A stretch of 64,000 nucleotides of DNA from Octopus sinensis. Lineage: Eukaryota. Below the pieces are notes generated by a model, which saw only the letters and a list, made by a program, of their open reading frames with translations, searched no databases and was not told the DNA's origin. Positions 170 through 21,295 of the stretch are shown in pieces. The stretch is taken from assembly GCF_006345805.1 (NCBI RefSeq), contig NC_043002.1, positions 7,502,001-7,566,000 on the forward strand, written 5' to 3'. Position 1 is the first letter of the stretch, and every line of letters begins with the position of its first letter. The translations under genes were made by a program, and so were the position numbers.

Positions 170-317
170 ACACAAAATTAAATTTAAATGTTGAAGTGAA
201 TCTAACGGTTTTTGTGTGTTTCTTAAATGGCTTATAAACACCTTCCACGCTGCAATTGTTTTCGTTCCAGTACACGATCTCAGATCAAGTAACTCGCTAT
301 GCAAGTACATCTCCGTA
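170..317 (+). mobile_element. Penelope-like element terminal fragment (family P1), portion downstream of the hammerhead
   Basis: Homologous to 7080-7255 and 20831-21066. Starts just past where the hammerhead ends in the 7.1-kb copy, and its 3' end (catctccgtaa) runs into (TA)n. Confidence 0.6.
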
Positions 318-6640: not shown

Positions 6641-7079
6641 ACAAAGCATATATATATATATATATATATATAACCACTCACGCACGACGGGTTTCCACAC
6701 AGCTTCTATCTACTATATATACTCAAAAGGCACTGGTTGACCTGGAGTTATATAGTTGAAGACACATGCTCCTGGTGCTGCCTTGTGGGACTGAACCATA
6801 AACCGCACGGTTGCGAAGCGACTGTTCTTTTATATAATTTTTGTCGCCATTTTTGAATTGTTCTTTGGTTACTTTTTCTTGCTGTCTTGCTTTTTTCTTT
6901 TTTTCTTTTGTTATTGTCCACATAATTTGTACGTATTCTATTCTTCCCCCGTATTTCCCACGATCCGTACAACATCACCTCGCATCATCTTATATCCGCA
7001 CCGAGTTATTTACGGCATTCTCGCACCAAACGTTCGGCAGCAACACATTTTAAATAACGGAGAGTCTGTAGCTTTGTCG

Positions 7080-7255
7080 CGTGGAAGGTGTTTATAAGCC
7101 TTTTTAAGAAACACACAAAAACCGTTAGATTCACTTCAACATTTAAATTTAATTTGTCAAAATATTTTCGTCGCTTTGAGACCGCGACCTGTTCACTGAC
7201 AAAACTTCGTGCTGCACACGATCTCAGATCAAGTCACTCGCTATGCAAGTACATC
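7080..7255. mobile_element. Penelope-like insertion (family P1), two oppositely oriented pieces within one TSD
   Basis: Minus-strand piece 7080-7205 and plus-strand piece 7214-7255. 15-bp TSD tctgtagctttgtcg at 7065-7079 and 7256-7270. Confidence 0.75.
7153..7203 (-). ncRNA. Minimal type I hammerhead ribozyme motif, G3:C8 core variant
   Basis: Minus strand: UUUGUCA-GUGAACA-G-GUCGC-GGUCUCAAA-GCGAC-GAA-AAUAUU-U^UGACAAA. 7-bp stem I, 5-bp stem II, palindromic stem III. Confidence 0.8.
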
Positions 7256-7439
7256 TCTGTAGCTTTGTCGTTCTATAACAGTGATACACTTTAATGCCCG
7301 GAAATGAGCCTCGCAAAATGTTCAGCTGGACATAGTAAGTTTGTACTTAGTTAAGATTATGCTAATTAAGTAGATTTTTACTGAATTTGATATTTGCTTT
7401 TATTTGCTGGATCTGGAGGAAGCTGCATTATCCATGCAC

Positions 7440-20830: not shown

Positions 20831-21066
20831 TTTGCAGTGTGGAAGGTGTTTATAAGCCATTTAAGAAACGCACAAAACCGTTATATTCCCTTCAACATTT
20901 AAATTTAATTTGTCAAAATATTTTCGTCGCTTTGAGACCGCGAAGTGAATCTAACGGTTTTGTGTGTTTCTTAAATGGCTTATAAACACCTTCTACGCTG
21001 CAATTGTTTTCGTTCCAGCACACGATCTCAGATCAAGTCTCTCGCTATGCAAGTACACCTCCGTAA
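20831..21066. mobile_element. Penelope-like insertion (family P1), inverted arrangement
   Basis: Arms 20831-20902 and 20943-21003 are reverse complements. The spacer holds the 3' half of the P1 hammerhead on the minus strand (GCGAC-GAA-AAUAUU-U-UGACAAA). Confidence 0.75.
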
Positions 21067-21295
21067 CTTTTTATTTTATTCCTCTGAAATAAATAGCCGA
21101 GTCAATAAGAAAGTTCTTCTGCTATCGCTCTGTCTGCTAGAATCAACAGCTATCTTATATTCTGTACAACATATTGCTCTGTCCTTGCTTACGATTTTCG
21201 GTGGCTTCTCTGATGTTTTTCTTTCTAGTATCCTAGATTAAACTGCTAACCCTATACTCAAATTTCTTCCATTTACTGTAGGCGAGAGTTAATAA

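Follow-up and report, generated by a model that had tools for sequence, protein, structure and literature searches.

A Penelope-like family of Octopus sinensis carries a hammerhead motif with a reversed G3:C8 core pair

Can a hammerhead in which the two letters of the core pair 3:8 have changed places still be a ribozyme, and what would have kept it in a genome? The question is raised by a 64,000-nucleotide stretch of Octopus sinensis DNA (assembly GCF_006345805.1, contig NC_043002.1, positions 7,502,001 to 7,566,000; this whole stretch is the window, and positions below are counted from its first letter), the minus strand of which spells out, at 7153-7203, a hammerhead motif with the core box GUGAACA in place of CUGANGA. 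This motif is a real feature and a core variant of a known ribozyme type. The explanation that we prefer, with a probability of about 0.7, is that it is the hammerhead of the pseudo-long terminal repeat (pseudo-LTR) of a Penelope-like family, here called family A, and that it would act as a slow self-cleaving ribozyme needing either a second copy or the protein encoded by the element's open reading frame (ORF). The parts of the motif are the following.

7153..7203, minus strand: minimal type I hammerhead motif, made up of a 7-bp stem I, the GUGAACA core, an extra G, a 5-bp stem II, GAA, the palindromic AAUAUU and U17
7190..7196, minus strand: core box GUGAACA, the family consensus, with G3 at 7196 and C8 at 7191
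7203-7197 (5' strand) and 7159-7153 (3' strand), minus strand: stem I
7188-7184 paired with 7174-7170, minus strand: stem II, 5 bp
7169-7167, minus strand: G12 A13 A14
7161..7166, minus strand: stem III, the self-complementary AAUAUU, with 6 bp possible between two copies and a putative use in dimers
7159..7160, minus strand: predicted cleavage site by hammerhead numbering, after U17 (7160), so that the 3' product would begin at 7159

An earlier, sequence-only reading of this DNA had proposed a minus-strand minimal type I hammerhead with a GUGAACA core and an extra G, cut between 7160 and 7159; the letters, the fold of stems I and II, and hammerhead numbering all agree with it. The core runs G3 (7196) U G A A C8 (7191) A9 (7190), followed by the extra G at 7189, and the minimum free energy structure consists of stems I and II (-14.5 kcal/mol, z -3.06, with 2 of 200 shuffled sequences equally good), stem I being open-ended as in a three-way junction; within the element, stem II has a probability of about 1.0 and stem I one of 0.5-1.0. 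The conserved letters U4 G5 A6, A9, G12 A13 A14, A15.1-U16.1, and H17 are each found in at least 93% of about 195-212 aligned pieces, and positions 3 and 8 are Watson-Crick complementary, as G:C in place of the literal C3 and G8 of CUGANGA. Searches fixed on CUGANGA had been expected to overlook such a family, and both Rfam and CUGANGA-type descriptors do miss the motif: Rfam covariance models gave no hammerhead match in 7000-7350 at E<=10 and, over the whole window, none among the 150 listed of 412 matches. The hundreds of sub-threshold microRNA matches that Rfam reports across positions 1-64000 are artefacts of dense microsatellites and simple repeats.

The reversed pair is not a slip of the window copy. 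When the 2.72-Gb genome was searched with a pattern of the flanks that left positions 3, 7, and 8 free, 5,574 matches were recovered (the family-A match counts take in both halves of inverted insertions), and 5,068 of these carry G3 together with C8, whereas the canonical C3:G8 appears in 0 of the first 100 listed of the 178 matches that lack G3. Therefore, G3:C8 is the family consensus, the outcome that had been set as a test of the sequence-only reading beforehand. A pattern taken from downstream of the motif has 6,957 matches in the genome. U17 is near-fixed (209 of 212 aligned pieces), and in 243 aligned family-A pieces, a sample partly biased by the search patterns used, variants above 15% are confined to loop II, the flanks, the ORF, and a single stem I pair that changes from U-A to U·G, with none within the core or stem II. 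Contigs under four organism labels, at a likeness of 82%, show no change of at least 5% at position 3 or 8, in a comparison of assembled contigs, which cannot reveal transcript ends or strand.

What kind of element disperses this motif? The common family-A unit is about 205 nt long and is often joined to an inverted copy that ends about 55 nt short; longer copies continue on the upstream side for about 1 kb, rich in microsatellites, and into the end of a GIY-YIG domain. At locus L156, an open frame of 1042 residues contains the reverse transcriptase (RT) motifs DKSG and YVDD, a CX3CxxC linker, and GIY-YIG, and the hammerhead lies 918 nt past its stop codon; at locus L177, the 5' copy of the unit runs in frame into the RT/GIY-YIG ORF, and the unit therefore comprises the 5' untranslated region (UTR) and about 30 codons. 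The hammerhead thus stands ahead of the ORF and recurs about 0.9-1 kb behind it. The family has two 3' ends, that of the pseudo-LTR and that of a tail made of the first ~30 codons, as well as inverted partial copies. The family-A protein alone has no match in Pfam, and a single-sequence search of solved structures gave nothing useful; among 29 aligned relatives, RVT_1 is matched in 5 and GIY-YIG in 5, and a profile of the relatives matches RT structures (E 1.3e-5).

An RT with a C-terminal GIY-YIG domain, as indicated by the motifs and the relatives, combined with a pseudo-LTR that overlaps the ORF start, an optional tail, and an inverted truncated copy, is the layout of an endonuclease-bearing (EN+) Penelope-like element. 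The Penelope-like origin proposed from the sequence alone is accordingly upheld, by the upstream GIY-YIG domain, the L156 frame, and the in-frame pseudo-LTR of L177. The C-terminal position of GIY-YIG separates family A from Naiad and Chlamys elements, in which the endonuclease is N-terminal, and its copies at the collected loci, mostly single or inverted, separate it from non-LTR retrozymes, in which a short hammerhead unit is repeated head to tail; the CX3CxxC linker is compatible with either the Neptune or the Nematis clade. The top GIY-YIG families of the genome were considered as the partner of the unit and rejected, having no DNA match to it. At L009:770-1660 and L011:1111-1659, there are short head-to-tail family-A arrays of about 360-390 bp with captured flanking DNA, in a retrozyme-like layout.

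Is the pair itself what selection has kept, as the swap had been taken to suggest? A protein search of the genome recovered two sister families, B and C, at 51-58% identity to family A; the three form one clade (SH-aLRT 99 in a quick tree of 54 rows), and the best named one of 277 protein relatives, labelled Octopus vulgaris, nests with family C. In both sisters, the homologous position, about 55-75 nt ahead of an ATG, is occupied by a hammerhead. In family B, where it is minimal, with a 3-bp stem I and a palindromic AAUU (L163:3123-3167, minus strand), the pair is U3:A8 in 92 of the first 100 listed of 2,323 matches; in family C (L165:4553-4602), it is C3:G8 in 97 of the first 100 listed of 2,908, position 17 being U or C depending on the subfamily. 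Across five rows from the three families, under a structure assigned by the analyst, each of the 11 tested pairs is preserved (pairing in 52 of 52 cells, against 24-50% in slid controls), and 5 of the 11 have changed on both sides, namely, 3:8, one pair of stem I, two of stem II, and 15.2:16.2, whereas U4, G5, A6, G12, A13, A14, A15.1, U16.1, and a non-G17 are kept throughout. The U3:A8 and C3:G8 pairs of the sisters and the five double changes support the view that pairing at 3:8 has been maintained by selection, which is where the sequence-only reading had pointed. The order of change among the three states cannot be fixed, as they occupy three branches.

A descriptor with positions 3, 8, and 9 free, run on about 1 Mb of loci chosen around such elements, found 11 motif groups; with one decayed family-A copy set aside, 9 of the remaining 10 are Watson-Crick at 3:8 and one is G·U, and the reversed-sequence control gave 0. 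Five further hammerhead-like motifs (L043:2358, L048:2884, L119:212, L137:4351, and L213:308) have U3:A8 and a palindromic stem III, and U3:A8 looks common in the elements of this genome.

These results leave the idea of a chance resemblance in an AT-rich repeat, with no homology to hammerheads, scarcely credible. The lack of an Rfam hammerhead match would be expected under it, but the window has one match to the G3/C8 hammerhead pattern where 0.01 would be expected by chance, the motif is located in a Penelope pseudo-LTR, a sister family has the canonical CUGAUG at the homologous place, and both the in-frame unit of L177 and the three-family covariation contradict it.

How, then, might such a motif work? 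In transcripts of the form pseudo-LTR-ORF-pseudo-LTR, two hammerhead copies could pair through AAUAUU or, alternatively, the ORF protein could chaperone the fold; G3:C8 would place the nucleotide-8 2'-OH in the same way as C3:G8, with a slower reaction. Cutting after U17 would then occur only upon AAUAUU pairing of two pseudo-LTR copies or with help from the ORF protein, and it would not be needed for each insertion, because most copies apparently derive from uncut, capped RNA. Precedents exist in the literature: other Penelope hammerheads are reported to be aided by dimers or proteins (PMC4209133, PMC11167929), pairing of 3 with 8 is a feature of the conformation that is active in catalysis (PMC3884650), and an engineered C3G/G8C change partly restores cleavage of a protein-dependent Penelope hammerhead (PMC11167929). 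For a variant with G3-C8, higher activity is reported with G17 than with C17 (PMC3884650), and the near-fixed U17 of family A may, we infer, ease a trap between positions 3 and 17.

Several observations weigh against this explanation, strong catalysis in particular. That the engineered G3:C8 rescue is only partial is one; that the covariation is drawn from three related lineages only is another; and family C has the consensus CUGAUGC, with C9 where A9 is otherwise conserved. Stem III is absent from the monomer (pairing probability of 15.1-16.1, 0.0), in which a G3·U17 wobble pair that extends stem I is predicted with a probability of 0.67, resembling the inhibitory C3-G17 trap (PMC3884650). 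Nearest-neighbour energies favour both a non-hammerhead dimer (-30.6) and a pair of monomers (-27.6) over the double hammerhead (-25.4). Moreover, unpaired G3·G8 copies are in excess: they make up 42 of the first 100 listed of the 328 copies without C8, compared with 15 G-to-C changes at position 3 in the first 100 listed of the 178 copies without G3, which extrapolates to about 138 of 328 against about 27. A looser pattern finds 224 G3·G8 matches in the genome, on several haplotypes, and such copies (L183, L184, L085, L106, L197, and L263 among the loci collected) are about 4-5 times commoner than neutral change predicts. They may be intermediate relics, a minor unpaired lineage that is still mobile, or the product of a mutation hotspot.

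The amplification or excess origin of G3·G8 copies also lends something to the notion that the hammerhead is a decaying passenger whose positions 3 and 8 drifted and are complementary by chance, as does the spread of Naiad elements without canonical hammerheads (PMC8557442). We regard this as improbable: three sister families with three different complementary pairs would arise in about 1 in 64 cases if the positions were free, and covariation extends to stems I, II, and III, whereas loop II and the flanks diverge.

The ends of the copies bear on whether cutting takes part in transposition. Numbered on L177, G3 is +23, the cut falls after +58, and the AUG is at +115. The base before the first A of the unit is C in 21 and T in 6 of 28 long copies, whereas in short copies it is a non-genomic G in 20 of 23, preceded by unrelated sequence (7 inverted-tail junctions set aside); this extra G is plausibly the cap-derived G of a transcription start. 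The upstream sequence was also considered as the 3' end of an intron, an option rejected because short copies share a single extra G and differ before it, although an intron lying farther upstream is conceivable. With the non-genomic G in 20 of 23, the templates of the short copies were presumably uncut. Among 30 copies anchored downstream of the cut site (the first 30 of the 6,957 matches, representing about 25 insertions on one chromosome arm), 0 have their 5' end at the site; that of one copy lies about 10 nt past it, and the others include sequence 5' of it. The insertion templates of the sampled copies would thus have been uncut or re-ligated, in agreement with the anole element, for which uncut RNA is the main substrate (PMC11167929). 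Both results count against cleavage as a regular step of insertion.

They are also what would be expected if the fold, 3:8 pair included, were kept for a role other than cutting, such as binding of the ORF protein or control of translation or template use, in a variant that is catalytically dead. This is the main rival, drift and chance fitting poorly; we consider it unlikely, if far from negligible. No sampled copy starts at the cut site, capped and uncut templates dominate, family C tolerates C9, and, in the anole element, hammerhead mutants leave in vitro insertion unchanged and no RNA-seq ends fall at the site (PMC11167929). Yet the catalytic letters are all kept across three families, and the pair at issue is part of the very conformation that is catalytically active (PMC3884650).

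A bolder version of the slow-ribozyme explanation, which we offer tentatively and hold to be doubtful, is that position 3:8 has cycled through three Watson-Crick states in this one clade of Penelope-like elements, and that G3:C8 with U17 is an attenuated working setting, in which the capped mRNA would be translated and copied uncut, with cleavage confined to dimers or to the presence of the element's protein; the excess of G3·G8 copies would then consist of fossils of the single-step intermediate. If this is true, genomes would record both a compensatory path and a hidden class of G3:C8 ribozymes.

Irrespective of this scenario, the patterns used to search for hammerheads treat C3 and G8 as invariant, and the natural exchange found in print is U3:A8. 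A G3:C8 family of more than 5,000 copies beside U3:A8 and C3:G8 sisters provides natural evidence for selection on the pair rather than on its letters; hammerhead counts in genomes are then too low, and some retroelements reported to be hammerhead-less may carry a variant. Three matched natural cores, together with an A9 variant, in one scaffold bear on whether Penelope hammerheads are kept for cutting.

Within the window, family A is represented by three insertions, laid out as follows.

7079..7216, minus strand: sense part of a truncated Penelope-like insertion, from about +4 of the 5' UTR into the first codons
7214..7261, plus strand: inverted 3'-tail fragment, about ORF codons 15-30, fused head to head with the sense part
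7065..7079, plus strand: left copy of a 15-bp target-site duplication, from sequence comparison
7256..7270, plus strand: right copy of the 15-bp target-site duplication, from sequence comparison
20835..21070, no strand assigned: second family-A insertion, with an inversion junction near 20943, containing the hammerhead 3' half only, with no GUGAACA box
175..317, plus strand: third family-A insertion, 5'-truncated, which starts past the hammerhead and stops within the tail

The insertion with its sense part at 7079..7216 is itself probably inert, having no upstream pseudo-LTR and a mutated version of the family's ATG. The exact recurrence of the 3' half, which had been placed at about 20918-20942, is real, but its extent was understated: 54 nt are identical, 7134-7187 matching 20890-20943.

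How does family A compare with what is known? In architecture, it resembles EN+ Penelope-like elements of the Neptune or Nematis type in the RT followed by a CX2-5CxxC-type linker (CX3CxxC here) and GIY-YIG, and in the pseudo-LTR, optional tail, inverted 5'-truncated copy, and many (TA)n insertions (PMC8557442); the pseudo-LTR, tail, and inverted copy are matched in PMC11167929 as well. From the DKG-type Penelope elements of the same genome, it differs in having DKSG in place of DKG and in a local identity of only 20-30%. The genome also holds a young DKG-type family (L086-L090; G000 C1, C3, C6, and C19), with several near-identical 781-residue frames matched by RVT_1 and GIY-YIG and with tandem repeats in the 3' region, and, at L139:4421-5899, a 493-residue frame of another Penelope-like type that resembles the Hydra-clade rows in the supplement of PMC8557442.

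As to the core, the texts consulted (PMC4209133, PMC11167929, PMC3088659, PMC3884650, PMC8495972, PMC8557442, PMC6765202, PMC6155905, PMC7229834, PMC6962438, and bioRxiv 10.64898/2026.07.22.740005), figures excepted, mention G3:C8 as an engineered change only, and searches of this partial literature for a natural case gave none, although other papers or their supplements could contain one. In a metagenome scan for other G3:C8 hammerheads, 2 of 80 loci (of at least 120) passed a loose stem filter, neither convincingly, and a viral scan gave one weak candidate among the 80 loci examined; neither is evidence of absence.

The closest natural counterparts are the minimal hammerheads of Penelope-like elements (Cervera and de la Pena 2014, PMC4209133), which share with family A the pseudo-LTR location, an extra nucleotide between 9 and 10.1, G10.1-C11.1, a 5-bp stem II, a short palindromic stem III of the Drosophila virilis type, and truncated copies scattered by the thousands. 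Their published consensus, CUGANGAH-G (Fig. S3), already includes the extra nucleotide ahead of stem II, as H, with G in one row, whereas in family A it is G; the 56 representatives in that figure have C3:G8, U3:A8 (two), or U3·G8 (one), and none has the G3:C8 of family A. The anole Poseidon element PAc likewise has a Penelope hammerhead near the ORF start and a tail from the first codons, but its ORF starts within stem II, whereas the AUG of family A lies about 57 nt past the cut site (PMC11167929). Mutants of this element with C3G/G8C (PMC11167929; reviewed in PMC8495972) have the same two letters as family A and are partially rescued, but are laboratory-made, not natural. Natural U3:A8 variants, by contrast, are already published (Perreault et al. 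2011, PMC3088659; Schistosoma Cercyon, PMC4209133), follow the same compensatory logic at 3:8, and include in kind our family B; they are transitions, whereas reaching G3:C8 takes two transversions, with purine and pyrimidine trading places. What family A adds, then, is the copy number, the identified autonomous partner, and the covariation among sister families through three states of a single pair.
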